Positions 22,892 to 50,729 of a DNA stretch of 64,000 nucleotides are shown piece after piece. Origin of the DNA: Candidatus Saccharimonadota bacterium (lineage in GTDB: Bacteria > Patescibacteriota > Saccharimonadia > Saccharimonadales > SZUA-47); assembly GCA_016700315.1 (NCBI GenBank), contig CP065013.1, forward strand, positions 577,449 through 641,448, given 5' to 3'. The position numbers and the translations under genes are program-made. Position 1 is the stretch's first letter, and each line of letters starts with the position of its first letter. The notes beneath the pieces were generated by a model, which was given only the letters and a program-made list of their open reading frames with translations, ran no database searches and had not been told where the DNA came from.

Positions 22892-22957
22892 CTTTTTCCG
22901 TAGATGCCAGCATTTGTGTTGGCTGTAATTTTTAAGTATAATTATCTCTGTTATATT

Positions 22958-22995
22958 CGGGAGTGGCGCTAGTAAGGCAAGCGCGGGCGGTTTGA
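22958..22995 (+). other. 5' fragment of a tRNA-Pro paralog, broken in the anticodon loop
   Basis: CGGGAGTGGCGC..GCGCGGGCGGTTTGA aligns with positions 1 to about 35 of the intact tRNA-Pro at 23175. It has its own upstream TATAAT at 22937-22942. Confidence 0.7.
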
Positions 22996-23150
22996 GTGAG
23001 AAGTGCCAGTGGCTCCGCCAGCTGGCGGATTGCAAGGCCGGAAACAGATTTTGAACCTGTTCAAAGTATGTTGAAGCGGGGCCGAGGCATGGCTGGCCAT
23101 AGGCTACCGTGATCGTGATCGTGGTCGTAAAGTCGCAAGTCGTGTAACGA
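22996..23150 (+). ncRNA. GTGAGAA-type tRNA-linked structured element, copy E1 (long subtype)
   Basis: Motifs in order: GTGAGAAGTGCCAGTGG, CTCCGCC-AGCT-GGCGGAT, GCAAGG, GGAAAC, hairpin TTGAA-CCTG-TTCAA, GTTGAAGCGGGGCCGAG. Collinear with copy E2. Confidence 0.55.
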
Positions 23151-23174
23151 ACTTTTTAGTTATAATGTATTTAT

Positions 23175-23251
23175 CGGGGAGTGGCGCAGTTTGGTAGCGC
23201 GGGCGGTTTGGGACCGTCAGGTCGCAGGTTCAAATCCTGTCTCCCCGACCA
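23175..23251 (+). tRNA. tRNA-Pro (anticodon TGG), CCA encoded
   Basis: Cloverleaf folded by hand: acceptor CGGGGAG/CTCCCCG, D stem GCGC/GCGC, anticodon loop TTTGGGA, T arm GCAGG-TTCAAAT-CCTGT. TATAAT at 23161-23166. Confidence 0.95.
23243..23251 (+). repeat. Left direct repeat (attL core) CCCCGACCA inside the tRNA-Pro 3' end
   Basis: Identical 9-mer at 33229-33237; the extended match is 11 of 13. Confidence 0.7.
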
Positions 23252-23354
23252 GAGAAGTCTTACTCAAACTCCCGGCTTGCCCGTCCTCACTGGACGGCAA
23301 GCCGGGAGTTTCTGTTTCCGGGGCTTCGTGCCTCATTCGCCGACGGCAGTCCTC

Positions 23355-23627
23355 GCGGCCGAGCCGTCTCGCTTCACGTTCCATGTGCACGATCTGCCGG
23401 AACGGCTCGTTGATGTCGTCGGCCACGACCTGATGGCGGTGGATGTAGATCTTGTTGAATACTGCCTGGTTGAGCTGGCGTCGCCCTGAGTCCGTCAGCT
23501 TCCCGTATAGCCCTGATGGCTTGGCGAGCAGGTCGAGGATGAAGTTGATCAGCTCTGCTCCTACTTGGATGTCGGAGTTCAGTCCGGCAAGCTCGTCTCG
23601 CAAGCGCTGGCGGTGCGCGGCTGCTCG
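23355..23627 (-). pseudogene. C-terminal remnant of a large serine recombinase-like gene
   Basis: The segment ...LLAKPSGLYGKLTDSGRRQLNQAVFNKIYIHRHQVVADDINEPFRQI... matches my recollection of the C-terminal tail of actinobacterial recombinase family proteins. There is no catalytic N-terminal part upstream. Confidence 0.45.
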
Positions 23628-23830
23628 GTGATCAGCTCGATCGGCACTGCCGGTCCGACCACGTGATGGAGGCTCAGTAGTCGGTTGGCTTGCCGCTCGG
23701 CGATCTGAAGCGCCTCTCCCAGGGTCAGGACGCGGGAGGGCATCAGCGAACGCAGCTGCTTCAGCGTGCTCTCCGTCGTGCCGTGGCGGGCAACTTCGCT
23801 GTTGGTTGGGTGGTTGATGCAGACAGCGCT
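23579..23830 (-). pseudogene. Fragment of an XRE-HTH / ImmA(IrrE)-like gene
   Basis: ...EVARHGTTESTLKQLRSLMPSRVLTLGEALQIAERQANRLLSL...PIELI resembles the end of an HTH domain plus an ImmA/IrrE N-terminus. It is truncated after about 60 aa. Confidence 0.3.
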
Positions 23831-23949
23831 CGTCAGGCGCAACGCCGAGCCGATGATAGATACCAAGAGGCTGGCAACACGGCAGTTGGTGGACTGAGTG
23901 ACATCGAGATGCGGATTGGCCAGCTGCAGGACTTCGAGAGAGCCGGCTG

Positions 23950-24807
23950 ATGGCGACCCACGAGAGCATTGATCGTCTGAGTTACGAAACACGGCATTTG
24001 GCCGACGTGGTCGCCCAGTCCGCAGGGCTGTGGCGTGATCAAGCGTCGGAGCACATCCACAAGCGGTATCTCCGGCCTCATGCGTCCGCCGCTGCGGGGA
24101 TTCTCGAAGGCCTGGCCGAGCAGGATGAGCACGACAGTGCCGCAAGCAACCATGCCGAGGAGGCATACGGCTACCAGCAACAGGCGTTTGCCGTTGTCGA
24201 GGTCGTCAACGCTGAAGTCGACCGGGCGAAGCGTCACGAGCAATCTGCCCACAGCTTCCTAGACCAGACTCTCCGGCACGAGCAGACCGTCGGACAGATC
24301 GAAACCAAGTTTCGATCACTCATCGACCAGGCGAACCATTCATGCAACGGGTGCCCTGGGCATGCCGGGCAAGTTGCGCCGAGTGTCGTCCTGCCTCGAC
24401 GGGTCGATCAGCTTGCGTCGGTCCCGACCCCTCAATCGAGCGCTTCAGCCGAAGCCGACTTTGCGCGTGCGACCGGACGTAACTATGGAGCAGCAGCAGA
24501 GCTCACGGTTGGTGGGCGCAAGTTTGTTCGAACATCAGACGAGGCTGGCCCCTCAGTGGGCTCCTTACATCCTGCTATGCAGGAGGTGCTGGATCGAGTG
24601 CCCGAAGGTCAGCAGTCTAAAACACATGGAAAGTGTGCCGAGATATGGGCTATCAGTGACGCGCTCCACGAGGGTATTGACCCCAGCGGAGGGTCGATCC
24701 ATGCCACTCAGATTGGCGACCGTGGAAGGCTTAAGCATGGGGACACCAAAGGCAACTGCTCATCTTGCAGCTGGGTCCGCAAGGAATTTGGAATTGCGCA
24801 CGCCTGA
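23950..24807 (+). CDS. Polymorphic-toxin-like protein with a C-terminal cytidine-deaminase-fold (YwqJ/SCP1.201-like) domain
   Basis: 285 aa. Helical N-terminal region of about 130 aa. The C-terminus carries HGKCAEIWAISDAL (a CAE zinc/catalytic motif) and GNCSSCSWV (CxxC). Confidence 0.5.
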   Translation: MATHESIDRLSYETRHLADVVAQSAGLWRDQASEHIHKRYLRPHASAAAGILEGLAEQDEHDSAASNHAEEAYGYQQQAFAVVEVVNAEVDRAKRHEQSAHSFLDQTLRHEQTVGQIETKFRSLIDQANHSCNGCPGHAGQVAPSVVLPRRVDQLASVPTPQSSASAEADFARATGRNYGAAAELTVGGRKFVRTSDEAGPSVGSLHPAMQEVLDRVPEGQQSKTHGKCAEIWAISDALHEGIDPSGGSIHATQIGDRGRLKHGDTKGNCSSCSWVRKEFGIAHA

Positions 24808-24810
24808 TGT

Positions 24811-25284
24811 GTGGTAGAATTGATTCAAACTATGATTGACTATGACAGACTCTATAACGCGGCGCTAATGGCCGGCGAGGCGGAATCAGAAGCTGTGTAT
24901 CAACGGCTCATGCAGATTGCAACGAGAACCTTTGGGCCGCTTTCTGGAGAACTTCCAGTCGAGCTCCGACCCCACTTCGCAGACGCCAGGGCTTGCTGGT
25001 TAATGGGTGAGCCGATTGATCTAGAACCTGCAAGGATTCACTGTTGGCAATATCTGAAGGACCATGGCATAACCTACGACAACTTCAGAGAGAACCGTCT
25101 CACCGGAATAATACGAATCCTCATCTGCCTGCTGTACAGCTATGAAGCAAGCCTAGCAACGACTCCTGCAGGTATAGGCGAAGCATCTGACAATATTGCT
25201 TGGTTCTTCAACGAGCTGGGTGACAATGCGATTCAATTGGCTCTACCTCCAAACACCACTGCCGACTCGCCCGGTGCGGGCTGA
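24811..25284 (+). CDS. Candidate cognate immunity protein
   Basis: 157 aa. Starts 3 nt after the toxin stop. Locally lower GC than its neighbours. No recognisable motif. Confidence 0.4.
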   Translation: MVELIQTMIDYDRLYNAALMAGEAESEAVYQRLMQIATRTFGPLSGELPVELRPHFADARACWLMGEPIDLEPARIHCWQYLKDHGITYDNFRENRLTGIIRILICLLYSYEASLATTPAGIGEASDNIAWFFNELGDNAIQLALPPNTTADSPGAG

Positions 25285-25294
25285 CGACTCTTCG

Positions 25295-25806
25295 ATGCTC
25301 TCATTAGATTCTTCGTTCTCTCGAGACGGGATGAATTCAAACTGGATCGGATCATTCGGCGAGCAGTGGTTTGGAACGATGTGTATCGCGTCTCGCTGCA
25401 TTCATTCGAAACCTAATCAGGACACGGCAGGTTTTGACTTTCTGGTCACAGACCAGCAGAGCGAGACGATCCGAGTTCAAGTCAAAGCGACCGAACAGCC
25501 ACAATGGCGTGACGGAAGCTTGGCCTTCGACCTTGACGTCGCCACATACGACAAGCTCAGACAAGGCACAACCCCCGGATTTCTGGTGGTTGTCGTCCTG
25601 CACCGCAGGCTCGAGGTGATCGCGCGTCACTTCGGCCGTGGGTTGTCGTGCGCGCCTCAGGATACTGGCTTCGGTTGGGTGGTCTACCGCCGACGAACAA
25701 CGCCTCCACGATCACTGTGCGACTCCCCTCTGGCAACATGCTGACGCAAGATCAGGTGCCGTTGCTGTTTCCTGCCGAAGGGGGTGTGCAAAGTGAGCGA
25801 GGATGA
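25295..25806 (+). pseudogene. DUF4365-like PD-(D/E)xK nuclease-fold gene with a frameshift near 25600
   Basis: GSFGEQWF...DTAGFDFLV...IRVQVKAT matches the DUF4365 motif pattern. After ...FLVVVVLH the expected continuation (RPWVVVRASGYWLRLGGLPPTNNASTITVRLPSGNMLTQDQV) is in the neighbouring frame, ending at TGA 25804-25806. Confidence 0.5.
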
Positions 25807-26908
25807 TGTCCTTGTAAGTCCCAAGTCTTTGACCAGCTACTTCTTACGCACACCGGATTGGAGCGTGGCCGTCACGAACGATCGACGCACCATCTTTGAG
25901 CATGTGAGTGGTCAGCGCGCCTTTGTGCCGGGATCGGTAGAGGTGGATTATGCCGAACTTGTTGCCGCGGCCGTCGTCAGCATCGCGGCAGCGGAGAGCC
26001 GAGACGAGCAGGATGTGTGGAGCTCGCTGCTCTGGCAGCGTCGTGATCATCTCCAGGTTCGTCGCCTCACCGCGGATGCGTCGGTATCGCTAGCAACCGG
26101 CTTGGAGATGCACGAGGCTTTGCAAGACCTCATCATTGCTGCGACTAGGTCGTCGATTGCTCCGAACGCACATCATCGCGGCCGTCGGCCGGCAGCCGTC
26201 GATCGATACGTGGAGCAGGTTCGACTCATCCCGTCATTGCCGGGAAGTTTCGTAGTCCGAGCACTTCTTCCGGTTGAACCGCTGTCGGACGACCCACAGC
26301 TGGAATTGGAGGGCTCGGCTATCGCGGTTCCGGAACACAGAGCAGTATCGGACCTTCTGATGAAGGCAACGCGAGTGGCGGTGGCGACGGCGTCGGCAAT
26401 CTCAGGCGGAGGAGAGCTCAATTCGTGGGACGCCGCCGTACCCCAAGGCGTGAGCTCAAATCTCTGTGATGCGTTGGCGCGGCTCACTGGCGGCGGCAGC
26501 GAGGCCATGACCACTGAACTCAGTGTCGGCAGGGCCTGGCAGTCGGGCGTCTCGGATTCCGACATGGTCAGTATCCCCGCCGGGGCATCGCCGGGCCTGG
26601 AGGTTGGCGGTGTGTACTTGCGCTCTCAGTCGGAGCAGCTGGAGATCAGAGCTACCGGCCTAGTCGTCAAGCTTCATCGAGAGAATCAACTTGGTGCGGG
26701 TGAGGTAACGATCCGTGGTGTGATTGAGGGGGCAGACGACTCCGGACGTTCACGTACTGTCAAGGTTCCACTCGACGAGTTGAGCTACAACGAGGCAGTC
26801 CTTGCACATAGGGCCGGTCGCCCAGTCACCGCACGGCTCCAGGTTGTGCCCGGTCCGTCAGGACTTGTCGTTCAGCACGTGCGAAACTGGCGGGTGATCG
26901 ATGACTGA
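25784..26908 (+). CDS. Hypothetical protein, partner of the DUF4365-like gene
   Basis: 374 aa with a GTG start that overlaps the restored upstream gene end. No motif recognised. Confidence 0.5.
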   Translation: MCKVSEDDVLVSPKSLTSYFLRTPDWSVAVTNDRRTIFEHVSGQRAFVPGSVEVDYAELVAAAVVSIAAAESRDEQDVWSSLLWQRRDHLQVRRLTADASVSLATGLEMHEALQDLIIAATRSSIAPNAHHRGRRPAAVDRYVEQVRLIPSLPGSFVVRALLPVEPLSDDPQLELEGSAIAVPEHRAVSDLLMKATRVAVATASAISGGGELNSWDAAVPQGVSSNLCDALARLTGGGSEAMTTELSVGRAWQSGVSDSDMVSIPAGASPGLEVGGVYLRSQSEQLEIRATGLVVKLHRENQLGAGEVTIRGVIEGADDSGRSRTVKVPLDELSYNEAVLAHRAGRPVTARLQVVPGPSGLVVQHVRNWRVIDD

Positions 26909-27093
26909 TATGCGTAGCGACGGGATGCCCTCAGCCGAGCGCTCGTTCGGCTTCAGTTCGTGGTCGATGGTCTGTTGCCCGGGATCGGACGGCAGGTACG
27001 CGAATCGACTGGACTGCCGCACCGGGCACAGCTCAGCCGGTCAACGATCTATATTCGCTACGGGCACTAGGCCGTGGCTCTGGGGAATCAAAA

Positions 27094-27879
27094 ATGAAAA
27101 CCAAACTTGTTCGGCAACTGGTGACGTCTGTTGCTTCGTGGGCGACGTTGCTCGGCTTCGCCCTGGTGTTCAAAGACCCGGCAAGGTCGTTTTCAATTGG
27201 TTGGGTTCTATTGATTGCCTTGAGTGTTGCAGCCCTGTCGGTGAACCTTCTTTACGATGTTAAAGAATATCGAGCCAATCGCTCGCGGATTTTTAAAGAA
27301 GATAAGAACGATAAGTCCAAAAAAGATCGCGAAATCCAGCGCTACATGATTGCCTGGATCAAGTCGGGTGGAAGAACAACGATTCTTACGCGTGACATGT
27401 CCTGGCTAAACGAAGAGGCGCGAGATGAGCTAACCAAAAAGGCCAAGACTGGAGATTTGACCATCCTTGCCCAGGAGCCTGGTGAGGGGGACATACAGGA
27501 GCTTGCGAGACAGGGTGCCCAGGTATACTATTATGGTATGAAAGGCTTTGTTCCTCAGTCGCGGTTCACGATAATCAACGATTCCAAGTTGGGTGCGTGT
27601 GTTTTGATCGGACGTCCAGACAACCAGAACCACGTGATCGAAAAGTACTCAGATCCGATGTCGCCCGTCATTTCGCTGGCAAAGGACCTCGCCGGGTATG
27701 TCAAGAAGTCGCAGAAAAAGCCAAAGAAGAAGTCTCTGCGGCTTACTAAAGATAGCGGGTCAACGGGAGATGTTCGACACGTGAGTGGCAACGGGATGCC
27801 GGAGCCGCTCGATAGCGCCGCCTGTGAAGCATCCGAGCTAACTCAACCCACCTCCGACACCCCAGCGAGCGAACAATGA
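27094..27879 (+). CDS. Two-TM membrane protein with a cytoplasmic domain of unknown function
   Basis: 261 aa. Two N-terminal TM helices, a K-rich linker and a globular domain (IAWIKSGGRTTILTRDMSWL...SRFTIIND...GACVLIG). The layout is reminiscent of a PLD-like fold, but the HxK motif is absent. Locally lower GC. Confidence 0.55.
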   Translation: MKTKLVRQLVTSVASWATLLGFALVFKDPARSFSIGWVLLIALSVAALSVNLLYDVKEYRANRSRIFKEDKNDKSKKDREIQRYMIAWIKSGGRTTILTRDMSWLNEEARDELTKKAKTGDLTILAQEPGEGDIQELARQGAQVYYYGMKGFVPQSRFTIINDSKLGACVLIGRPDNQNHVIEKYSDPMSPVISLAKDLAGYVKKSQKKPKKKSLRLTKDSGSTGDVRHVSGNGMPEPLDSAACEASELTQPTSDTPASEQ

Positions 27880-28667
27880 TCGACCTGGCGGGTGATACAC
27901 GACCTATACGTATGCGGCCGGTTCGGCCTCCCACGCGAGCCGAAGTCTGCGCTCGTTGGGACCTTATTGCCGAGGAACGTGACGGTCAGATCAGAAGTGG
28001 CGTAGATATCAGTATGCGACACGTGATTATCCCTGGGGTCGTTGGGTTGATAAGGAGCGCCCAGCTGGGGAGGCAGACCCGGGTACTCGATGTGGGTTGC
28101 GGGAGCGGTTACTTGACCGAACGTCTCGCTCGGAGGTTTGACACAGTGCTTGGAATAGACCCGTCAGCGCTGTCGATCGAGCTGGCACGTGCTCAACCTA
28201 CGAGAGCGAGCTATATTCAGAGATGGGTTGAGGAAATGTCCGATGACCAACAGTTTGATCTGGTCGTGGCTAATATGGTTTTCATGGATACCCCAGACCT
28301 GGAGTCTACTGTTTCTGCTATTGATCGGTTGGTTGTTCCAGGCGGAACCGTAGTGATCAGCGTCCTGCATCCATGCCATTGGCCATATTACTGGGGCTAC
28401 GCCTATGAAGATTGGTTCGAATACCCAAAGGAAGTTGCCATCGAAGCCACTTTCAGAATTACGAAGGCCATTAGTGAAGTGGAGACCTTTCATTTCCATC
28501 GCCCATTGGAAAGATATTCGGACGTTCTATGCAATCGGGGATTCCTCATAGAAAGATTCGTTGAGCTAATGCCTTCGGCCAAAGTTGCACGGCAATACGG
28601 TACGACTCCGGCTCGCTTTCCTCGATTTCTCGCGGTTCTGGCAAGCAAACCTGAATTACGCGACTGA
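27876..28667 (+). CDS. Class I SAM-dependent methyltransferase
   Basis: 263 aa with motif I VLDVGCGSGYL. ATGA overlap with the upstream gene. Confidence 0.8.
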   Translation: MIDLAGDTRPIRMRPVRPPTRAEVCARWDLIAEERDGQIRSGVDISMRHVIIPGVVGLIRSAQLGRQTRVLDVGCGSGYLTERLARRFDTVLGIDPSALSIELARAQPTRASYIQRWVEEMSDDQQFDLVVANMVFMDTPDLESTVSAIDRLVVPGGTVVISVLHPCHWPYYWGYAYEDWFEYPKEVAIEATFRITKAISEVETFHFHRPLERYSDVLCNRGFLIERFVELMPSAKVARQYGTTPARFPRFLAVLASKPELRD

Positions 28668-29230
28668 CAGAGGCAATTCTGTCCGGGTCGAAGCTGATCA
28701 GTGGTGGCAGATTTGGTCGATGGAGCGTTGCGGGTATGCATGCGCTCGGCGTGGGGGCGGTCCGGACCCCTTTGCCGCCGCCAGGCGCATGCTGGGCCCC
28801 CCCATGGAACAACTTCACACGCATTTCCACGCCGGGCCGTAGAAACCGGGGCGAACGCCGGTTCTCATCTCGGCTCGTCTCTTCGCTGAGGGTTGAGCGG
28901 TGACGCCGACCAGGTTCTCGACCTGTTCGGCATAGAGCACGAGCCCGCAATCGGGCACAGTCCCGTGGTAGCGACGTTCAACCCCGTGGGCTTGCACGAT
29001 CGCAGACATGCGGTCACGGCTGATGCCTACGGAAGCGGCCGTCATCGGAACTTTGGAGGGACTTCGGATTTCACGGTGGAGTGAGCGTGCCGAGCAGGGC
29101 CCAGTTGGGGCGTCCGGCGTAGAGCAGTGACCGGATGCGGTAGTGCTCGAAGTTCCGGATCCCGAATGCGGCTCTACGCGGCCAACGCTGGGTTGCGGCC
29201 TCTGATTCTGTAGGTGGGGACGGTAGTCCA

Positions 29231-29515
29231 TTAGCCCCACAACGTGATGTCTTCGAAGAACGACTTGAGCGCCGACACGGTCCCGTGCTGGCGGGCGATC
29301 GACACCGGTCGCCCGTGGGCGCGTCGTCCTCGTGATGGTCGGGTGTGGTTCCAGGCCAGGAACTCCTCGATCATCTGCCGGTCGAGCTGGTCGAGGCCGG
29401 CGGTGTTGGGGTGGTGGTCGTGGAGCCACATGGCGAACAGCTCGAAGCTGTCGCAGCGGTCCTCGATCGTGGATGGTCGCAGCGTGGTCGAGCAGGCTTG
29501 GAGGTAGCGGTTCAT
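29231..29515 (-). pseudogene. N-terminal SAM-like domain fragment of a tyrosine recombinase
   Basis: MNRYLQACSTTLRPSTIEDRCDSFELFAMWL...IEEFLAWN...VSALKSFFEDITLWG matches phage-integrase N-terminal SAM-like domains. A stop follows WG, and no catalytic domain is recognisable downstream. Confidence 0.5.
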
Positions 29516-29545
29516 TGAACGTGACCCGGAATCCTGGACACGGGG

Positions 29546-30436
29546 TTATGCCAGATTCGGTTGTCCGTGGTCGTGGCGCCATTGGTCAGCGTACTCGGCT
29601 GGGGTGAGGTGGCCGAGGCCGGTCTGGTGGCGTTGCCGGTTGTAGAACACCTCGATGAACTCGAACAAGTAGGCGTGACACTCGGCGCGGGTCGGGAACC
29701 AGATGCTGCCGCGGATCCAGGCGATCTCGACCTTGAGCCTGGCCCAGGCGGTCTCCATCGCGGCGTTGTCGAACGCGTCGCCGGTCGACCCGAACGAGAG
29801 CTGCATGTCGGCGTTCCCGGCAGCGAACGCGAAGTCGAGCGACGTGTACTGCGACCCCTTGTCCGAGTGATGGATCACGTCGCCCGGGTGGCCGGTGCGG
29901 GCCAACGCCATCGTCAACGCCGACACCACGAGAGCGGCGTCCTGGCGGCCGGCGGTGTCCCAGCCGACGATCCCACGATGGAACAGATCCCGGATCCCAG
30001 CGAGATACAGCTTGCCCTCACCGGTCGGGAACTCGGTGATGTCCGCGACCCACCGCTGGTTCGGGGCGACCGCACGGAAGTCGCGGCTCAACAGGTCCGG
30101 GACACCACCGGCATCAGGGCGCCCACGCCGCCACTTCTTGCTGGCGTGTGCGCCGACCAGGCCGTTTGCGCGCATCAACCGGGCGACATGGGACCGGGCG
30201 ACCCGATGCCCGCGGCGTTGCAACTGCCCGAGCATCCGCGGCACCCCATAGGTCTTGCGTGACCGGGCATAGATGTCACGGATCGTCACGAGCAGCGCCT
30301 CGTCGGTGATGTCGCGAGCTGACGGCTTGCGGGTCAGCCACGCGTAGAACGACGAGCGTGGGATCTCGGCGAGTTCACACATCCGCTTGACCGGCAGCTC
30401 GGTCATGTTGTCCTGGACGAAGCGGAAGCGGATCAC
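29546..30436 (-). CDS. IS3-family transposase OrfB (DDE integrase core)
   Basis: 296 aa. WVADITEF...HHSDKGSQYTS...DNAAMETAW contains the DDE/rve motifs. Confidence 0.92.
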   Translation of the reverse strand: MIRFRFVQDNMTELPVKRMCELAEIPRSSFYAWLTRKPSARDITDEALLVTIRDIYARSRKTYGVPRMLGQLQRRGHRVARSHVARLMRANGLVGAHASKKWRRGRPDAGGVPDLLSRDFRAVAPNQRWVADITEFPTGEGKLYLAGIRDLFHRGIVGWDTAGRQDAALVVSALTMALARTGHPGDVIHHSDKGSQYTSLDFAFAAGNADMQLSFGSTGDAFDNAAMETAWARLKVEIAWIRGSIWFPTRAECHAYLFEFIEVFYNRQRHQTGLGHLTPAEYADQWRHDHGQPNLA

Positions 30437-30729
30437 CTCATCGTCTCTCGGGCAAAATATGCGGCCGCCCGACGCAGGATCTCGGTGTCGGTCTCCAACT
30501 CGATCACCTGCCGACGCAACCGGCGCAACTCGTCACGCTCGGACTCCGTCAACTCGTCCGGATCAGCCGCCCGCTGCGTCGCGTCACGGGCCTGCTTGAC
30601 CCAGTTCCACAACGTCCCCTCGCTGATCCCCAACGAACGCGCCACCTCCGCGATCGGGCGCCCCGAGTTCTTCACCAACTCGAGCGCGTCCCGACGAAAC
30701 TTCTCCGGATACTTGCTTGGACGCCCCAT
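30433..30729 (-). CDS. IS3-family transposase OrfA (HTH)
   Basis: 98 aa. KYPEKFRRDALELV..GRPIAEVARSLGISEGTLWNWVKQ plus a leucine-zipper-like tail. Confidence 0.9.
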   Translation of the reverse strand: MGRPSKYPEKFRRDALELVKNSGRPIAEVARSLGISEGTLWNWVKQARDATQRAADPDELTESERDELRRLRRQVIELETDTEILRRAAAYFARETMR

Positions 30730-30797
30730 GACGGGCTCCTTCCTACACGGTCTCCCGCGTAATCAGGTGTCCAAGAAACCGGGTCACGTTCACATCA

Positions 30798-31148
30798 CTA
30801 GAGCGATTCGGGTTGCGGCACCCGGGCGAGCTGGTCGGCGAGGCTGCGATGCCGGGTGTTGGGGTGTGGCGGCTGGTCGTCGAGCAGACCGAGCTGGAAG
30901 CACACCTGCTGCAACGCTCGCAGTCGTCCGTGGAGGACGCGGCGATGGTTCGTGGTCACTGTCGTTGACGCGTCAAGCGCCGTGGTCGTCGACGCGAACA
31001 CCGCGGCGTCGACGTCGTCGAGTCGACGGTTGCTGGTCAAGCAGACGAACGCGAGGCCGATCACACAGACCTGGTCGATCCAGCTGTCGCCCCAACCGAG
31101 CTGGCGGCCGACCAGCAGCGCGCACATGCGCCTAGGATCCGTTTCCAA
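30798..31148 (-). CDS. Hypothetical ORF upstream of the recombinase fragment (uncertain in GC-rich DNA)
   Basis: 116-aa ORF whose stop lies 2 nt before the ATG (30795-30793) that the IS target duplication copies. No motif recognised. Confidence 0.25.
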   Translation of the reverse strand: METDPRRMCALLVGRQLGWGDSWIDQVCVIGLAFVCLTSNRRLDDVDAAVFASTTTALDASTTVTTNHRRVLHGRLRALQQVCFQLGLLDDQPPHPNTRHRSLADQLARVPQPESL

Positions 31149-31301
31149 GCAGGGGCTCCTCGAGACTCAACGACTTCGAACACCGCTGAGAATCACAGAG
31201 CCCCTGTATCGCGTCGCGGATCACCTACGCGGCGATCAACCCACCCTCAGATCCGAAGCGCCACTTTGGAACCTCACCGAGTCAGGCGCTCGCCACCTCC
31301 C

Positions 31302-32378
31302 TCACGCATCGCCGCCCAGCGGCACACTCCCGTCGGCGAACGCCTCGAGCGTCAACGTAGGATCCGACAGAGCGCCCAACGTCGCCCAGCGTTCCCTGGT
31401 GAAGTCCATCACCGTCTGAGCCTGAGGCGGGTTCAGTTCGCTGAGATCGCCACCAAGCTCTGCCAGCACCGTCCACGTGGTGGGCGGAAGGTCGAAGAAG
31501 GACAGGTAAGCGTCATAGGTCTTGGCGCGCTCCTCACGAGCTGAGGCAGCGAACATCGCGACGTACTGTTCTCTGGTCAGGAACCTGAACTCACAACGCT
31601 CCACCACCTCGTGGAACACCCGGCTACCGGGTTGTGAGTCACCAGTCTGAGGATCCTCAAACTGTTGCGTGAACCGGACGGCGGCAGCCACATTGCCGAT
31701 GTATTTCTCCGGCGTCGAGAACTGCTCGACCACTGGAACAGCGGTTGTGACGCCTGTGTCACCCGGCGCTACAGACGTCGTTGTCGACACCGACTCCGTG
31801 GTCGCCTCACCGTCTCGGTTCTTGAAGTCAGGGAAGAGCACCGACCCCTCCACCCACTTCAACGGCTCATCTTGCAAACAGAATCGACCCTCGCTGACCG
31901 CGGCATTCGCATCGATACGCTCCCACAACCGCTTCGATACGTCCTCGAGCGACAACGTCGAACTCGTCACGGCCTTGGTGGATTTAGTTGTGCCGCCTCC
32001 GTTGTTACTTCCGCCGCCGTTATTGCCGCCATTGTTACCACCGCCATTACCACCGCCTTGTGGCTTAGTGGTTGTGGTGCGAGGTGGCTTTACCTTTGTT
32101 GTGGAAGGGTTGTTGACAATACTGGTTTCCGTACAAATACCATTATCGTCCCAATTCACGCAGACACTCCCAGCAGGTCTCATACCCTCTACCTGAACCG
32201 GTGCGGCTTCTACAGCTTTGGGCTCGCTAGCTACTTTTGCTCCAGTTACCAATGCTACGCCTGCAAGTACAGCGCCAACTTTAGCCCCAAAACCTCTTTT
32301 TTCTTTTGTCTTAGCCATAGGCATAGCACCCATCTCTGGGGATCGTGATAATTCGTTGCTTCTGTTGCTTGCACTCAT
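31302..32378 (-). CDS. Secreted or anchored hypothetical protein with a G/N-rich linker
   Basis: 358-aa ORF. The likely start is MAKTKEKRGFGAKVGAVLAGVALV, at about 32318. Contains a GGGNGGGNNGGNNGGGSNNGGG low-complexity tract. Confidence 0.5.
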   Translation of the reverse strand: MSASNRSNELSRSPEMGAMPMAKTKEKRGFGAKVGAVLAGVALVTGAKVASEPKAVEAAPVQVEGMRPAGSVCVNWDDNGICTETSIVNNPSTTKVKPPRTTTTKPQGGGNGGGNNGGNNGGGSNNGGGTTKSTKAVTSSTLSLEDVSKRLWERIDANAAVSEGRFCLQDEPLKWVEGSVLFPDFKNRDGEATTESVSTTTSVAPGDTGVTTAVPVVEQFSTPEKYIGNVAAAVRFTQQFEDPQTGDSQPGSRVFHEVVERCEFRFLTREQYVAMFAASAREERAKTYDAYLSFFDLPPTTWTVLAELGGDLSELNPPQAQTVMDFTRERWATLGALSDPTLTLEAFADGSVPLGGDA

Positions 32379-32776
32379 GGCTTTCTGCTCCTTACCTGAG
32401 CCTTGGGGGTTACGCTCAGATGATTAGTTAGCTTAACTTTGGCCTAGCAGCGCTAGCGGGCATTTTTACTGTCCCGTGCTGACTGCCTGTACCGATCCGT
32501 TTTTGGCGCGTTTTAAGCGTTCGGGCTCTAAGTCCGTCCTGAGCCGCCTCAACAGGCGACTCAGGACGGCCAACCCCCCAGCACCCCCGCCCATCTCTCC
32601 GACACCCTCCATCAAAATCATCGCCTCGCGCACCACGACCCACCAGACAGAACCTCCGACCCTGCCACCCGAGGTCCACCTCAACTCTCACCACACAGCC
32701 CTCCTGCAGCCTCTGCGAGCTTCACACGGCGTCCGACAGAATCACCGATGAGAACGTAACGCATCGCAGCTGCACA

Positions 32777-33226
32777 TCAACCGCCACCAGCCTGGCCACC
32801 TGGATCGCCCACCGCCCCAGCCGACAACAGGGCTTCTCTCGCCCGCTTGCGAGCCCGGATCAGGGTCGTACGACCCATTCCCAGCACAGTTGCAGTCGCC
32901 GTCACGTTCAACCCCGCCGCCGACAGCTCGGCAGCGCGCCGCATGTCCACCACCAACGACTGGTGATACCGGCGATCGACACCGCGCCCCGCCAGGATCT
33001 TCGAGACGGTCCCCCGATTGATCCCGAATCGCCTCGACAACTCATCAATCGTCGCCCCCGACACGTACGCCTCGGCAAGACGATCCCTGTCCGAACCAGA
33101 CAGAGCAGCTCGAACCCGGGCAGGAACCACCACGCGCTCGACCTCATCCGTCTCATCCCGCAACGGTAACCCAACCAGCCGCTGAACGAGTTGCCCCCGG
33201 TACCCGAAGTTTGAGTAACGGCGCAT
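32777..33226 (-). CDS. Helix-turn-helix DNA-binding protein (two HTH units) abutting the right island end
   Basis: ATIDELSRRFGINRGTVSKIL and NVTATATVLGMGRTTLIRARKRA. ATG at 33226 is preferred over the track's TTG at 33238. Confidence 0.55.
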   Translation of the reverse strand: MRRYSNFGYRGQLVQRLVGLPLRDETDEVERVVVPARVRAALSGSDRDRLAEAYVSGATIDELSRRFGINRGTVSKILAGRGVDRRYHQSLVVDMRRAAELSAAGLNVTATATVLGMGRTTLIRARKRAREALLSAGAVGDPGGQAGGG

Positions 33227-33228
33227 CA

Positions 33229-33237
33229 CCCCGACCA
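33229..33237 (+). repeat. Right direct repeat (attR core) CCCCGACCA
   Basis: Identical to 23243-23251. Confidence 0.7.
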
Positions 33238-33276
33238 ACTAATGAATCCAGCATTCTTGCTGGGTTTTTTAGTTGG
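33238..33276 (+). terminator. Displaced native tRNA-Pro terminator
   Basis: CCAACTAA..CCAGCA-TTCT-TGCTGG-GTTTTTT-AGTTGG. It has the same architecture (CCA, A-rich arm, hairpin, T-rich arm, TGG) as the terminators after tRNA-Arg, tRNA-Lys and tRNA-Arg at 42714, 50694 and 53409. Confidence 0.7.
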
Positions 33277-33467
33277 TTATGAATAACTCGAATCTTCGAC
33301 CGACAAGAGGTCGAAAGCCAGGATTGCCAGTTGTAGTTATAAAAATTCGAATCTTTATCAGTAAATTCAGGTTTTGCACATTAACTATCTGTTAGAGGAC
33401 AGTCATCTTTTCCCCAATAAGTTTGGTGATAGCTCACTTTGCCAAGAGATAGGCTATAATTTTATTT

Positions 33468-34919
33468 ATGATTGAAGACAAACGAATAGGTATGCTCGTT
33501 GGCTTGGCGATTGGTGATACGCTCGGTATGCCTTTAGAGTTTAAACAGCGAGGCACTTTTACGCCGTTAGAAACGCTTGCTGAAGGTGGACCTTTTAATT
33601 TACCCCTCGGCTATTGGACTGACGATACGTCAATGGCTCTGTGCTTAGCTGATAGTATTCTTGCGAAACAAGGCTACGATTCTTATGACGTTATGGATCG
33701 TTATGTTGATTGGCAAGATAATGGTTATAGAAGTTCAACAGGCGTTTGTTTTGACATTGGCAATCAGGTGTCTTCGGCGATAGGTCACTATAAAGCTCAA
33801 CCCGAAGTAGTTATTGACGAACAAAGAACTGAATCGGCTGGTAATGGTTGTATTATGCGGCTTGCACCAGTTGTGATTGCTTCAATGGCAGCAAATAATA
33901 GTCTAAAGCGGACTATGCAACTTGCCGCTATTAGTGGTAGAGAAACTCACTATTCTACTCTTGCCGAAGAAGCAACAGCTCTATTCGCTGGTTTGCTTTT
34001 TAATGCTGTGAGTGCAACTAACAAAGATGATGTGTTGCAAATGCGCACGACGGCAACGCAAGATACGCAGTTAATTACAGTCGTCAATAAAGCGAACCAA
34101 AAGACGGCAGATGAGTTAAAGCCTACGGGCTATATACTGGACACGTTGGAAGTAGCTGTCTGGGCTTTCATGACTACTAACAACTTCAAAGAGGGTGCAC
34201 TCAAAGCGGTTAACTTAGGAGGTGATTCAGATACGATTGGTGCTGTTTACGGTCAGCTCGCAGGTGCATATTACGGTTTAGCTGGCATACCGCAAGAGTG
34301 GCTTGAGCAGCTTTATGATTATAGCGATATAGTAAAATTAGCGGAGCAGCTGACTGGTATTAAGACCTTTGGAATTATTAGAACACGATTCGCCGAAGAT
34401 AAAGATGATAAGCGAGTACAATTAGAAAATAAGGAGAACCCGATGGCTGACGACAACCAACCACAAGAACCACTAACAGATGAAGATAAAGCTGTGTTGA
34501 AATCATGGAGTAATGTTGGCTCGCCAGGACCAGCACCTACAACACCCTTTGTGCCTACTGAGGAGCAAAGGCAGCAGTTTAAGCCCATCAACACCCCTAA
34601 GACAATAGCTGTAAATTGGAAGCTTGACCAAGAAACATATAAGCGTTTACAACTTGGTCATTTGGCTCACGAAATGGAAGATAAGTGGAACGTCTATATG
34701 GAAGATAACACTGTACATCTTCACCGAAGTTGGACAGGCATGGAGCTGTTTCGCTTTACTTTACAGCCAGCAGACAATGATACTTACACGGTTAGCCAAT
34801 TTGAAGTAGAGCAAGACCCAGAGCGATACACCGAAACAGATGAGCAAGCGATCCGTGATACGCTAAGCGAAGTATTTCAGGCAGTGCTTGGCGTAGCATT
34901 ATCTAAAACAAAAGTGTAA
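33468..34919 (+). CDS. ADP-ribosylglycohydrolase-family protein fused to an uncharacterised C-terminal domain
   Basis: 483 aa. IGMLVGLAIGDTLGMPLEF, YWTDDTSMALCLA and GGDSDTIGAVYGQLAGAYYG are ARH signatures. About 150 extra C-terminal residues carry no motif I recognise. Confidence 0.8.
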   Translation: MIEDKRIGMLVGLAIGDTLGMPLEFKQRGTFTPLETLAEGGPFNLPLGYWTDDTSMALCLADSILAKQGYDSYDVMDRYVDWQDNGYRSSTGVCFDIGNQVSSAIGHYKAQPEVVIDEQRTESAGNGCIMRLAPVVIASMAANNSLKRTMQLAAISGRETHYSTLAEEATALFAGLLFNAVSATNKDDVLQMRTTATQDTQLITVVNKANQKTADELKPTGYILDTLEVAVWAFMTTNNFKEGALKAVNLGGDSDTIGAVYGQLAGAYYGLAGIPQEWLEQLYDYSDIVKLAEQLTGIKTFGIIRTRFAEDKDDKRVQLENKENPMADDNQPQEPLTDEDKAVLKSWSNVGSPGPAPTTPFVPTEEQRQQFKPINTPKTIAVNWKLDQETYKRLQLGHLAHEMEDKWNVYMEDNTVHLHRSWTGMELFRFTLQPADNDTYTVSQFEVEQDPERYTETDEQAIRDTLSEVFQAVLGVALSKTKV

Positions 34920-35129
34920 TTACGATTCAAATTCTTCGTCATTGTATAATAGGTTTTTTAACAGGGGTGGTCGGGAAAAGCACTAACAATTGACAAGCGC
35001 TTATCTTGCTAAGAAAATGACACTACCCCTGTTAGGGTATGTCGCTCAAGGTAGATTGTACGACACAATAAATTAGCATATAAGTAAGTATTGCATAAAG
35101 GTGTTAAGTGTAGTATAATATAGCACCTA

Positions 35130-36485
35130 ATGAGAGTTTCAATAGCACCCGAAGCACTTATAGATAGTCAAGTTGCCGATAGTGAAGTTGGCGACCTTTT
35201 TCAGCGTGATGTAACTATTTCGCAACAGCCTAGCCAAGACGGTGGTTATGATTACTCCCTTATCTTTAAGGGTGGTTCTCTTGCTCCTGAAACAGCATAC
35301 GGAGTAATGCGTGTTGCAGCACCTTATGATGGACAATTTGAAACACCAAGAGATGTAATTGCCGATTGGCAAGAGCCAGATAATCACACTACCGAAGCTA
35401 AAGAACGAATAGTAAGACACGAACGATTGCTTGGTCAGAACTGGCACGACTTTATGATTTCACGACCTGTGTTTATGGAAGTAGTTGAAGCAGTACCACA
35501 GCTTGATATAAACGAACAAGAAGTTCGCCCAATTACCGAACCAGATGAATTAGCAAGTTTTGCAGCAGCATATCTAGTTAATCCTAATGACGCAGAAACT
35601 GCCCTAAAGATATTGAGTAACGCAGGAGTTGATAAAAAGCATACAACAGCTATTTGGAACTCAATACGACCATTTCTAGTATCGCCACCAAGAGGTTCAT
35701 TCAGTATGGATTTCCATTACAGGCTTGGTGATAATGCACAAGAAACCGCTGACGCTATCAAACAAATGCTATCCGAATTACCTAAAACTGTTACAAAGAA
35801 GGTCGTAAATGCAACGGTTAAGCCAGCAATCGTACTAGACAGTTTCGGTTTGAAGGAGCTTGATTACAATACTGGTAGATATAAAACCAAACTTATAATA
35901 CCTTCGTCTTTCTTTGGTGAACGATATTGTGTCCAAGCTAAACGAGATGAAGAAGGCAACGTAACAGCCGTGCCATTTGCAAGAGAGGGTTACACTCATA
36001 AATCGGGGTTATGGCTGATACCAGAATGGGACAGTTTTACAGAATGGGAACAGAATGGCACTGTACGAAAAACAGCAACTTTAACGAATCCTGCTTTTAA
36101 CGATAGCTACGGTTATGGCTACAGACCAATGCTTTTAGCAGACCGTGCTGTTCAACGAGGAAGTTTGCGTTCTGCTCCCACCGCTCCACTTGTTAAGCCT
36201 GAAATACGTTGGCGTACAAATGCTGACGGCAACCAACGTGAGTTTGTTTTAGATGATGAGCAAAGAGAAGTTCAGGGTCGGCGTATTGTAAGAAGCGGTA
36301 TTTTTGGAGTTATCTTAGCTGCTGCTGCACAGCCAGATATAACGAGAACTTGGCCTGAAAGAATCCATAATCAAATTATGGGTGTTGCACAATTACCAGT
36401 GCTTGCACTTATACAAAGAGAACAGCTTGCTAATGGTGGCTTACTGGCAAGAGCAGAAAAACTTGTCTCCACGATTAGTAAATAA
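35130..36485 (+). CDS. Hypothetical protein (451 aa)
   Basis: Long ORF with TATAAT at 35114-35119. No motif recognised. Confidence 0.6.
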   Translation: MRVSIAPEALIDSQVADSEVGDLFQRDVTISQQPSQDGGYDYSLIFKGGSLAPETAYGVMRVAAPYDGQFETPRDVIADWQEPDNHTTEAKERIVRHERLLGQNWHDFMISRPVFMEVVEAVPQLDINEQEVRPITEPDELASFAAAYLVNPNDAETALKILSNAGVDKKHTTAIWNSIRPFLVSPPRGSFSMDFHYRLGDNAQETADAIKQMLSELPKTVTKKVVNATVKPAIVLDSFGLKELDYNTGRYKTKLIIPSSFFGERYCVQAKRDEEGNVTAVPFAREGYTHKSGLWLIPEWDSFTEWEQNGTVRKTATLTNPAFNDSYGYGYRPMLLADRAVQRGSLRSAPTAPLVKPEIRWRTNADGNQREFVLDDEQREVQGRRIVRSGIFGVILAAAAQPDITRTWPERIHNQIMGVAQLPVLALIQREQLANGGLLARAEKLVSTISK

Positions 36486-36784
36486 AACTGGTTCAAACCC
36501 ATATTGGTTAATGATATTTAATAGGCATATATTTTGCCTTTGATCTGATAAGAGCCTTCGACTCATCTATCGCAGCTATAATCGTTGCAGTTTTTTCGTA
36601 TGTTTTCTGTGCCCCACGCTTTGTTTAGGTGCGTATTAAAAAAGTCAGGTATAAGTTAAAAACTATTCACCTTTGGCAAGGCTAGAAACGATTTAACATT
36701 TATTCACGAAAGCTTTTCTTGGGTGTTTTATTTTAACGGGGGTTGTTCTATATTAAAGATATTAAGTAATTAGGGAGTGATGCC

Positions 36785-37354
36785 ATGGAATGGTTTAAAA
36801 AACACAAAATAGTAACAGTTATACTCGCACTGGTATTACTCGTCGGTATTGCAGGAGCGACGGGGGGATCCAAGAAGTCCTCAGACAACTCAAACAAGTC
36901 TAGCAGCAGCGCTAAACAAAGTAATGAAAAGACTTACAAGTTCGACGATAGGGCAGATAAACAAAATAAAGACGTAGAAGTACTGCCAGGCGAAGCTGCG
37001 ACCGTTGACGGGGTTAAGATGACGCTTACCAATGTCGAAGTTAAGACATCACTCAGTGATTTTGAAACTGCCGCAAGCGGTAAGACATACGTCCTAGCAG
37101 ATGTGGCACTTGAAAACACAAACAAAGACACGAAGCCTTATAACGTTTTTAACTTTAGAATTCAAACAGCCGGGGGACAAGTGTTAGACGGTACGTTTTC
37201 TACAGTAGCTAATCTGGGTTCTGGAGATATGGTTGCTGGCGGAAAGGCCTCTGGCAAAATAGTTTTTGAGGTTCCGGTCGAAGATGGGCATCAGTATGTG
37301 ATCTGGAAGCCAAATGCATTCAATGCAGACCGTGCCGTTGTAAGAGTTAAGTAA
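36785..37354 (+). CDS. DUF4352-like secreted or anchored protein
   Basis: 189 aa. N-terminal TM helix, S/K-rich linker and an immunoglobulin-like domain (VDGVKMTLTNVEV...YVLADVALENTNKDTKPYNVFNF). Confidence 0.6.
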   Translation: MEWFKKHKIVTVILALVLLVGIAGATGGSKKSSDNSNKSSSSAKQSNEKTYKFDDRADKQNKDVEVLPGEAATVDGVKMTLTNVEVKTSLSDFETAASGKTYVLADVALENTNKDTKPYNVFNFRIQTAGGQVLDGTFSTVANLGSGDMVAGGKASGKIVFEVPVEDGHQYVIWKPNAFNADRAVVRVK

Positions 37355-42636: not shown

Positions 42637-42713
42637 GCCCCGGTAGCTCAGTGGATTAGAGCGATGGGCTTCTATCCCACAGGTCGGGGGTTCGAATCCC
42701 TCCCGGGGTACCA
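42637..42713 (+). tRNA. tRNA-Arg (anticodon TCT), CCA encoded
   Basis: Hand-folded: acceptor GCCCCGG/CCGGGGT, anticodon loop CTTCTAT, T arm GGGGG-TTCGAAT-CCCTC. Confidence 0.93.
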
Positions 42714-42751
42714 ATAATAATACCTCAGCTTGTCTGAGGTATTATTATTGG
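42714..42751 (+). terminator. tRNA-Arg(TCT) terminator hairpin
   Basis: AATAATAATACCTCAG-CTTGT-CTGAGGTATTATTATTGG. Confidence 0.75.
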
Positions 42752-42999
42752 TTATATTGGTGGATTAGAACGCCCGACCAAAAAGGTCGGGGTGAGAAAG
42801 TCCAGTGGATCCGCCAGCTGGCGGATCGCAAGGAAACAAACTCTTGAAAACTTGTTTTCAAAGATGTTTTTTCGGGTGAGACGATTCAGTGAATCGTCGC
42901 AAGGACTATTGTCTGATTTCAAACTTGTTTGAAGAAAGACAAAGTCGGGGTCGCTGAAAGTGACCGCCGAAGGTGAGTCGAATCCCTCCCGGGGTACCA
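42752..42999 (+). pseudogene. Composite pseudo-tRNA-Arg(TCT): degenerate 5' part, element E3 (42792-42977), then a perfect 22-nt tRNA 3' end
   Basis: GGTGGATTAGAACG..AAGGTCGGG, then GTGAGAAAGTCC...GGTCGC-TGAAA-GTGACC..GGTGAG, then TCGAATCCCTCCCGGGGTACCA. A second terminator follows at 43000-43039. Confidence 0.65.
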
Positions 43000-50693: not shown

Positions 50694-50729
50694 AATAAAA
50701 AACCCAGCATGTCTGGGTTTTTTATTTGG
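50694..50729 (+). terminator. tRNA-Lys terminator hairpin
   Basis: AATAAAAAACCCAG-CATGT-CTGGGTTTTTTATTTGG. Confidence 0.75.

Follow-up and report, generated by a model that had tools for sequence, protein, structure and literature searches.

How did a 10-kb, high-GC block of DNA come to lie directly behind a tRNA-Pro gene of Candidatus Saccharimonadota bacterium? We addressed this question in a stretch of 64,000 nt (contig CP065013.1 of assembly GCA_016700315.1, positions 577,449-641,448 of the forward strand), referred to below as the window. How Saccharibacteria, ultra-small epibionts whose genomes are reduced, gain genes is poorly understood. An initial annotation of the window had proposed an Actinobacteria-like island integrated at the 3' end of tRNA-Pro. 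Judged by its sequence, this island is very probably the decayed remnant of an integrative element that was borne by a large serine recombinase (LSR) family inserting at the very end of tRNA genes. What goes beyond the initial annotation is the part assigned to the serine recombinase, the tRNA target and a split open reading frame (ORF), together with independent confirmation of both junctions.

Borders of the island and identity of the recipient

The island is compositionally foreign DNA. Its GC content (23252-33237) is 0.597 versus 0.441 for the rest of the window, and the 200-bp GC profile flips at about 23200-23300 and at about 33200, within approximately 100 bp of the borders. The tetranucleotide correlation between the island and the rest of the window is -0.33, compared with 0.75-0.94 for 5-kb windows clear of the island. 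These values bear out the composition switch that had been proposed for both borders. The island begins directly after the CCA of tRNA-Pro(TGG) (23251/23252) and ends at the second copy of a 9-bp repeat, CCCCGACCA (33237/33238). The tRNA gene itself (23175..23251, plus strand; ARAGORN; Rfam 63 bits) is intact, and its last 9 nt (23243-23251) form the attL copy of the core. The repeat, which had been pointed out at both ends, occurs only twice in the 64 kb (23243-23251 and 33229-33237); 0.24 copies are expected, and two or more were found in 3 of 100 shuffles.

The right-hand copy leads into the displaced native trailer of tRNA-Pro, a terminator hairpin (33234..33277, plus strand; -31 kcal/mol) in which the ACCA of the tRNA pairs with a TGGT downstream. 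It is 99% identical in the sister contigs L097 (a 43.5-kb contig, ENA ERZ27309396, from an independent assembly of a sister strain) and L081 (ENA ERZ15185725); the comparisons below also use L082 (JGI 3300042202) and L091 (JGI 3300042200). The design of this trailer is common to tRNA-Arg(TCT), tRNA-Lys and tRNA-Arg(TCG) of the window, in keeping with the earlier view that it is a displaced native tRNA tail. In these shared trailers (42637-42790, 50617-50770, 53332-53480 and 33228-33280; -31 to -43 kcal/mol), the 3' ACCA and an A-rich run pair with a T-rich run and TGGT around a short GC hairpin. At the left border, a GC-rich hairpin with a perfect 16-bp stem (23266..23311) lies within the 3' end of the recombinase ORF described below. 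A T-rich tract follows on the plus strand, and the hairpin occupies the terminator position of tRNA-Pro. A related element on contig L085, introduced below, has a hairpin at the equivalent place with different stem bases. On our reading, the element hairpin may stand in for the displaced tRNA terminator.

Flanking genes of the island encode RecA, PilB, RNase Y, a Kup transporter and a P-type ATPase. RNase Y matches exclusively metagenome-assembled genomes (MAGs) of Saccharibacteria/Saccharimonadales, at 75-84% amino acid (aa) identity, and in many of the matched MAGs tRNA-Pro(TGG) lies a few kb downstream of RNase Y. Judged by these matches, the recipient is a Saccharimonadales bacterium, and the host that had been described as CPR-like (candidate phyla radiation) is thus specified. 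Among 80 species-level RNase Y loci, no homologue of an island gene was detected within 10 kb, except for one weak methyltransferase match (24% aa). In other species, partial matches to tRNA-Pro that lie downstream of this gene were at first taken for integration scars; most proved to be tRNA-Pro(CGG/GGG) genes. Rfam searches of the window and related loci returned tRNAs only, an exact-protein look-up of the flanking CYTH gene returned no record, and no literature on the sample accessions was found.

A large serine recombinase remnant between inverted-repeat att arms

The left end of the island holds the last ~125 codons of an LSR (23217..23615, minus strand; identified by HMMER relatives), a finding that agrees with the serine recombinase tail listed in the initial annotation. 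This ORF reads through attL and stops within the tRNA (...SLSKTSLVGETGFEPAT*). An exhaustive HMMER search with the remnant returned 391 relatives, the long members of which (599-759 aa) match it at about residues 420-570. The Resolvase, Recombinase and Zn_ribbon_recom domains of these long relatives identify them as large serine recombinases. No other LSR fragment, including the catalytic domain, was found in the window. As only the tail is left here and the homologues possess all three domains, the island derives from an LSR element and is no longer a functional member.

Copies of the LSR tail with 93-95% nucleotide (nt) identity are present in L081, L082, L097 and a further contig, L083. The breakpoints of these tails differ. 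Compared with position 23615 of the window, the break lies 18 nt further upstream in L083 (~337), where it forms an in-frame fusion to the N-terminus of an IS3 orfB, and ~45 nt further in L081 (~3548), L082 and L097.

Both ends of the island possess an element-side att arm. At attL, the P' arm (23252..23269) consists of gagaagtc followed by TTACTCAAAC, a 10-bp inverted repeat at 23260-23269; it is identical in L097, L081 and L082. At attR (33209..33237), the P arm consists of GTTTGAGTAA (33209-33218) followed by cggcgcatca and leads into the core CCCCGACCA (33229-33237); the arm is identical in L097, and the same layout is found at a second site in L082 and in L085. Joining of the island ends rebuilds a 47-bp attP made of GTTTGAGTAA, 10 nt, CCCCGACCA, 8 nt and TTACTCAAAC, in which perfect 10-bp inverted repeats surround a 27-bp spacer. 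Within the 64 kb, the 10-mer is confined to the borders, with one copy at each. A match to GACCAGAGAAGTC in contig L012 was rejected as a chance palindrome at a gene end.

The closest LSR relative, P0004, shares 60% aa identity with the remnant by phmmer and 54% by tblastn against the window. It is encoded on seven contigs, including GCA_964477795.1, at the end of a ~9.3-kb island of 55-65% GC within a genome of 70-74% GC (the L085 element). Its ORF reads into tRNA-Pro(CGG) via the same P' arm (GTTTGAGTAAGACTTC..TGGTCGGGG; GTTTGAGTAAGACTTCaaTGGTCGGGG), which is conserved in this element as AAGTCTTACTCAAAC. The far end of the L085 island reads TCGG, 12 nt and TTACTCAAAC, with a spacing equal to that of the window. 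The core shared by attL and attR is 9 bp in the window and 5 bp (CCGAC) in the L085 relative, so that crossover probably takes place within CGAC, the core common to all junctions compared. Reading into a tRNA is a habit of the family: among its 150 best representatives, at least 34 run into a reverse-complement tRNA, after a conserved SSK..(M/L)V motif. P0004 itself (L085 9077-10921; the same in L086-L090) is called as two ORFs of 299 and 306 aa, with a frame change in the zinc-ribbon region. Since this frame change is identical on contigs from several samples, the L085 copy of the LSR is probably inactive too. ARAGORN also reports a 90-nt 'tRNA-Pro' within the L085 LSR ORF (10246-10335), without Rfam support.

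A serine rather than a tyrosine integrase fits the shortness of the core, the wide spacing of the inverted repeats and the behaviour of the family, and we infer that the LSR encoded in cis carried out the integration. A 2020 survey covering 2168 genomes counted t(m)RNA genes as the site in only 14 of 297 serine integrase cases, a use that it called 'not reported previously'; tRNA genes were used by 44.5% of tyrosine integrases versus 4.9% of serine integrases (PMC7192596).

The attachment site lies within the recombinase ORF

The right end of the island encodes a double helix-turn-helix (HTH) module (32777..33226, minus strand; Pfam HTH_23/HTH_28). An HTH protein had been noted before, and the one at the right end can now be recognized as a C-terminal module that was split off from the serine recombinase ORF. 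When we rebuilt the circular junction of the window island, a single uninterrupted minus-strand ORF appeared, running from the LSR tail through the att sequence (...SLSKTSLVG-VMRRYSNFGYRG...) into two HTH motifs and a stop. The rebuilt junction of the L085 element gives a single ORF too (...CLSKTSMVG-LLRRYSNSADQ...), and a homologous HTH ORF (44% aa, E 9e-23) is located just inside its far end. Furthermore, two natural unsplit proteins, P0119 and P0011, combine the LSR tail with the HTH module in a single chain. P0119, from a 3-kb contig of 59% GC, matches Recombinase, Zn_ribbon_recom and HTH_7 (E 8e-9) and reads ...GSISSVMVELLGRYANLSYQG... over the att-like stretch; as called it is without the N-terminal catalytic part, since a stop in L101 separates the upstream ORF. 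A comparison of the HTH module with solved structures gave no significant match.

The rebuilt junctions and the unsplit proteins thus place attP within the recombinase ORF. Because LSR, attP and double-HTH module form one ORF in the circle, integration splits the recombinase gene. The continuity of the island's LSR tail and HTH module through attP also ties the att arms to that recombinase. Whether splitting of the ORF plays a role in the control of directionality is a matter of conjecture.

Several observations count against this account. No intact LSR was found in the window or in any sister strain, so that LSR activity in a Saccharibacterium is deduced rather than seen, and the nearest relative of the LSR has an identity of only 54-60% and a frameshifted gene. 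Scans of viral and JGI metagenome contigs with the LSR tail, and a tblastn of P0004 against plasmids and phages, gave no match. That the 27 bp of the spacer are divisible by three could be due to chance (1 in 3), and natural unsplit proteins number only 2 of 150. Finally, a resident low-GC LSR family at the same tRNA end, taken up below, could in principle act in trans.

Origin of the element

From which lineage did the element come? The composition speaks for a high-GC source, and an origin in Actinomycetota is probable, judging from the relatives of two internal parts of the island and from the setting of the L085 element. The first is a tyrosine recombinase pseudogene on the minus strand, with a distal piece at 29204..29515 (residues ~200-326 of a 647-aa homologue) and a proximal, N-terminal piece at 30796..31565 that contains frame changes and overlaps the end of the ORF at 31302-32378. 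When the pieces are joined, they give one contiguous alignment to residues ~110-326 of the 647-aa Rhodococcus integrase, the catalytic half being gone. The initial annotation had called it a tail; that it is a recombinase piece holds, and it is an N-terminal to middle fragment instead. Its plasmid matches are restricted to Rhodococcus, Mycobacterium, Mycolicibacterium and Arthrobacter (26-38% aa), with the distal piece matching the integrase of Rhodococcus pDK3 by tblastn at 38% over 129 aa.

The second is the IS3-family element (29516..30792, minus strand) that separates the two pieces. It appears to be intact, as had been annotated: it has 36-bp terminal inverted repeats starting TG...CA, an orfA (30433-30729) with HTH_Tnp_1, an orfB (29546-30436) with HTH_21 and rve, and a target duplication CAT (29513-29515 and 30793-30795). 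Removal of the IS3 and one CAT restores the reading frame of the tyrosine recombinase. Its sole full-length plasmid match is from Iamia sp. (Acidimicrobiia), at 68.8% nt over 1.25 kb; among partial plasmid matches Streptomyces is the commonest genus, and some are from Proteobacteria. As to the L085 element, the genes beside its tRNA-Pro encode a BagB/BagA-like pair of ATPases (NF053621, E 1e-99) and a response regulator resembling Rv3143, with scores below the curated cut-offs; the BagA/BagB and Rv3143 families carry names of M. tuberculosis proteins. With its 70-74% GC and these neighbouring genes, the L085 host genome looks actinobacterial.

It is less likely, and unlikely on the whole, that the element was carried by an LSR from a high-GC donor outside Actinomycetota, or that it has long circulated within Saccharibacteria; in either case it would be uninformative on the host of the epibiont. 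This alternative draws on the 54-60% identity of the closest LSR relative, on the island being common to sister strains and already diversified among them, and on a family GC content of ~55-65% in both hosts, which makes the element foreign not only in a 44% Saccharibacterium but in the 70-74% GC genome of L085 as well. It draws in addition on the cargo. The deaminase described below has no clear actinobacterial signal, and neither has the PDC-M02 gene pair, the best plasmid matches of which are from Proteobacteria at 25-28%. Against it stand the tyrosine recombinase matches, all of them to Actinomycetota plasmids, the confinement of the full-length IS3 match to Iamia with Streptomyces leading the partial ones, the BagA/BagB-like pair beside the L085 tRNA with its Mycobacterium tuberculosis names, and a GC content that remains at 60% with no drift toward the 44% of the host.

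The actinobacterial origin also has to face three further facts. The taxonomy assigned to the L085 host rests on GC content and two neighbouring genes, without a marker phylogeny. Three cargo genes are at only ~51-53% GC. Near-identical donor sequence was not found in plasmid, phage, viral-contig or metagenome-contig collections: megablast with the complete island as query returned nothing from plasmids or phages, and distant blastn returned the IS3 and one 111-nt match only. The Actinobacteria-like source that had been suggested is therefore retained as probable on the strength of the tyrosine recombinase, the IS3 and the L085 setting, and a near-identical donor does not back it. From what is known of cultivated Saccharibacteria, it is plausible that the donor was the epibiont's own host. 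Contig L083, which is 904 bp long and wholly GC-rich and in which the LSR tail (92.7% nt) is joined to an IS3 fragment, could come from a donor lineage; it is too short to place.

A resident low-GC recombinase family at the same tRNA end

Could a recombinase of the recipient have done the work? A resident low-GC Saccharibacterial serine recombinase might have captured or moved the GC-rich DNA in trans via a CGACCA core, which we consider improbable. Such recombinases do exist at this place. In L081, the same native trailer (junction ..atcttgagCCGACCA|ACTAAAG) adjoins a low-GC element whose Resolvase-domain gene is truncated by the end of the contig, and at least six other Saccharibacteria species have homologues (39-66% aa) located 1-1.9 kb downstream of tRNA-Pro(TGG). 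The flank of a 1.38-kb GC-rich block in L081 (ttttgagCGACCA) moreover resembles the arm of the low-GC element (atcttgagCCGACCA). However, both att arms of the island are conserved in the L085 element, which has a GC-type LSR adjacent and in which no match to a low-GC-type recombinase was detected, and the LSR tail and HTH module of the island are one ORF through attP. As both island att arms belong to the GC-type family, the low-GC family is a weak rival for the original integration. Low-GC elements could nevertheless be behind later rearrangements in L081 and L082.

The low-GC homologues lie on the opposite strand with their 3' end toward the tRNA, and the ORF in L069 reads into the tRNA. Beside tRNA-Pro(TGG), members of the family were found in L081 (10634-12449), L069 (16200-18019), L050, L070, L022, L021, L032, L071, L046, L010 and L006, from which it follows that Saccharibacteria have serine-recombinase elements of their own at the tRNA-Pro end.

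A tyrosine integrase as an improbable inserting enzyme

A classical tRNA island, or an actinomycete integrative and conjugative element (AICE), inserted by the tyrosine integrase that is now a pseudogene split by the IS3, is very improbable. Use of tRNA genes is typical of tyrosine integrases, at the frequencies cited above, and a tyrosine recombinase pseudogene does lie in the island. The att sites argue otherwise, since the direct repeat is limited to the 9 bp of the window and the 5 bp of L085, and a 27-bp spacing of inverted repeats would, from established att-site architecture, be too wide for core-type sites. The pseudogene (29204-31565) is also not at an element end, being 1.7-4 kb from attR. 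Furthermore, the att arms recur in the L085 element, whose called genes include no tyrosine recombinase, and no rep, tra or FtsK-like transfer domains were found in the island ORFs scanned. The preferred enzyme thus remains the LSR.

Sister strains and the reality of the junctions

The junctions were next compared among the sister contigs. L097 is ~97% identical to the window from RecA through CYTH, with an identical RNase Y and the gene order RecA-RNase Y-MazG-CYTH kept, and it has the same tRNA and junction. It matches window 23174-23615 (tRNA-Pro, attL and recombinase tail) at 94.8% identity and window 32960-33413 (start of the HTH gene, attR and native trailer) at 98.9%. In alignments of the junctions themselves, attL differs by 2 substitutions and attR by 1 base, all of them in the element part. 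The interior between the two junctions differs in L097, comprising 3.5 kb of 55-63% GC. In L082, ~19 nt of a Saccharibacterial-type tRNA-Pro end are joined to the same element arm. L091 equals window 24352-27388 without substitutions, with two single-base homopolymer differences, and L081 has a right flank that is 99% identical, with a different, low-GC insert at the same trailer. From these comparisons, the site emerges as a hot spot that varies among strains, with the island as a genuine part of the genomes of this population. The combination of the same junctions with different interiors in the window and L097 suggests one old integration, after which deletions, IS activity and cargo exchange would have taken place.

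That a high-GC contig of another organism was misjoined into a Saccharibacteria contig is, on the evidence of the public assemblies, scarcely credible: the abrupt compositional shift at both borders and the five short-read Logan contigs that have an identical right-flank gene (the glycohydrolase) and end 39-198 nt upstream, before the junction, would suit such a chimera, but both junctions recur in the independent L097 and attL again in L082, the 9-bp repeat would be too short to mislead an assembler, the flanks are Saccharibacterial on both sides with the native tRNA trailer opening the right one, and the breaks of the Logan contigs fit the strain variation seen directly in L081 and L097. The real integration junction at the 3' end of tRNA-Pro that the initial annotation had asserted is accordingly reproduced at both ends in L097.

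Other rearrangements were observed around this site. The 1.38-kb GC-rich block of L081 (2585-3965) ends in the same LSR tail and P' arm at a second locus, ~3 kb to the right of the tRNA trailer and equivalent to window 36552/36705; its left junction is shared by L082 (395-1775). The block in L082 has the ~19 nt of tRNA-Pro end and then, at ~1985-2015, a second attR-like site of TTGGTCGGG, 12 nt and TACTCAAAC. These second-locus blocks suggest tandem or translocated elements. To the right of the trailer, window 33414-37355 is strain-variable too. It contains an ADP-ribosylglycohydrolase, a 451-aa ORF and a DUF4352 gene; the counterpart is DUF3850 and a HAD hydrolase in L097, and an IS1595 transposase, an AAA_15/AAA_21 ATPase and a glyoxalase-family gene in L081.

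Immediately upstream of tRNA-Pro lies a ~216-bp insert (22955-23173) that opens with a degenerate copy of the tRNA 5' half (CGGGAGTGGCGC...AGCGCGGGCGGTTTG), broken at the anticodon. Both tRNA-Pro and this degenerate copy have a promoter-like AT-rich stretch upstream. Window 22995-23173 is absent from the sister contigs L097 and L098, and the insert may be the scar of another integration.

Cargo of the island

Following the LSR remnant, a stretch of degenerate GC-rich DNA (23616..23949) begins where homology to the sister-strain islands stops, at 23615. An ImmA-like fragment considered at 23579-23740 was without Pfam support. The next gene (23950..24807, plus strand) encodes a toxin-like protein with a C-terminal YwqJ-type deaminase (Pfam PF14431, E 1.2e-8), which shares 30-38% aa identity with the C-termini of polymorphic toxins on Streptomyces plasmids and in one Acinetobacter record. 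A small ORF directly 3' of it (24811..25284, plus strand) is a candidate immunity protein by position only and has no family match. Of the deaminase toxin pair named in the initial annotation, the deaminase thus stands and its partner is an immunity protein by position alone.

The DUF4365 gene (25295..25744, plus strand) encodes a PDC-M02A nuclease-like protein (Pfam; PADLOC E 2e-12) and is adjacent to a full-length PDC-M02B (25784..26908, plus strand; PADLOC E 3e-61 over 11-373). With both PADLOC profiles matched by neighbouring genes, A and B form a candidate anti-phage defence pair, and the same gene pair is present on a Gluconobacter plasmid. Homologues of the pair (25295-26908, with a B protein of 374 aa) fall into 19 protein clusters, the nearest of which, apart from an identical copy, is at 56%. 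That copy, a PDC-M02B protein of 100% identity, is from JGI 3300042200, an independent sample. The DUF4365 gene is frameshifted in the window by the 1-nt homopolymer difference from L091 at 25639 (GGG versus GGGG) and is intact, with 158 aa, in L091; the other difference is at 27089 (AAAAA versus AAAAAA). The two differences could be long-read consensus errors in the window assembly instead of real mutations. Some of the cargo may be in use, PDC-M02B being an example with its full length and its identical copy elsewhere.

Two further genes on the plus strand encode a predicted membrane protein of 261 aa and no known family (27094..27879; GC 0.51) and a class I S-adenosylmethionine-dependent methyltransferase (27876..28667; GC 0.53; Pfam Methyltransf_11/25, E ~2e-17). 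The G/N-rich ORF of the initial annotation is present on the minus strand (31302..32378). It has an N-terminal hydrophobic segment in addition to the G/N-rich stretch and no family match, and over its last ~88 codons it can be aligned with the N-terminus of the tyrosine recombinase family.

A proposed course of events

The junctions, att architecture, family relations and gene decay described above can be arranged into a scheme. In the free circle, the island ends would be joined as the 47-bp attP (GTTTGAGTAA, the 27-bp spacer with the core, and TTACTCAAAC), inside a single ORF that runs from LSR through attP to a double-HTH module of ~150 aa. The LSR would then recombine attP with the 3' end of the Saccharibacterial tRNA-Pro(TGG) at the shared core CCCCGACCA, with crossover in CGAC. 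By this step, the tRNA would stay intact and gain the hairpin of the element at the terminator position, and the native trailer would be moved 10 kb away. At the same time the recombinase ORF would be split: the LSR would then read into the tRNA at attL, and the HTH module would lie at attR. Once the element was integrated, deletions would have left only the last ~125 LSR codons, and the internal tyrosine recombinase gene would have lost its catalytic half and been struck by the IS3, by which the island would have become fixed.

No recombinase able to excise the island is left, and the IS3 alone looks functional. Because only the LSR tail remains and the tyrosine recombinase is a fragment interrupted by the IS3, the island is immobile, as had been supposed from the lack of an intact integrase.

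Relation to known integration systems

The family of the island resembles the LSR elements phiC31, Bxb1 and A118 in several respects. Its long relatives have the same Resolvase, Recombinase and Zn_ribbon_recom domains, attL and attR share a very short core, attP is ~50 bp with inverted-repeat half-sites, and the recombinase lies beside att. It differs from them by targeting tRNA 3' ends and by having attP inside the recombinase ORF, upstream of a C-terminal double-HTH; the window copy is a ~125-codon remnant. The IS within the island is typical of the IS3 family (orfA/orfB, rve, inverted repeats, 3-bp duplication) and is 69% identical in nt to the nearest plasmid copy.

Two actinobacterial systems offer further comparisons. 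pSAM2 of Streptomyces is a high-GC integrative element at the 3' part of a tRNA-Pro gene, with a tyrosine integrase, a long att identity segment and rep/tra genes. Unlike such an AICE, the island has a duplication of 9 bp only, no rep or FtsK-like genes that could be found and no tyrosine integrase at its end. In the mycobacteriophages BPs and Brujita, which use a tyrosine integrase, attP is located within the coding sequence of the repressor, and integration alters the C-terminus of the protein. The likeness here is a built-in switch between free and integrated states; in the family of the island the split gene is the serine recombinase, for which a regulatory effect is conjectural.

The closest parallel in working is found among SSV-type elements, archaeal viruses and plasmids that insert into tRNA genes. 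SSV-type tyrosine integrases have the site within the integrase ORF, and integration splits the gene (PMC7253208); the family of the island is alike in carrying attP inside the integrase ORF and in having the gene partitioned to the element ends. The enzymes differ (tyrosine and archaeal versus serine and bacterial), so the likeness is one of working and not of family membership. In addition, the split in the island removes the C-terminal HTH module only, and the catalytic and zinc-ribbon/coiled-coil parts stay together. We therefore put forward, as a tentative possibility, that this LSR family targets the last bases of tRNAs with an attP in its own ORF, that detachment of the HTH module serves as a switch between the free and the integrated state, and that the family is a serine counterpart of the SSV type. 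The tRNA target would then be conserved well enough for related elements to use tRNA-Pro(TGG) in a Saccharibacterium and tRNA-Pro(CGG) in the actinobacterial-looking high-GC genome.

Implications

As an un-ameliorated high-GC block of 10 kb with base-exact junctions that were reproduced independently, the island would represent a cross-phylum transfer with a mechanism readable in the sequence. It could serve as a marker for the donor, and possibly for the host, in the same samples. Serine integrases have been thought to avoid tRNA genes; the family of the island targets them widely, and a second, native Saccharibacterial family uses the same tRNA-Pro end. If an attP within the ORF does split off the DNA-binding module, this would be a new form of directionality control for serine integrases, with relevance to genome-engineering tools. 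The tRNA target, if true, would explain how an element entered a CPR genome from a distant phylum, which may be that of the epibiont's host.

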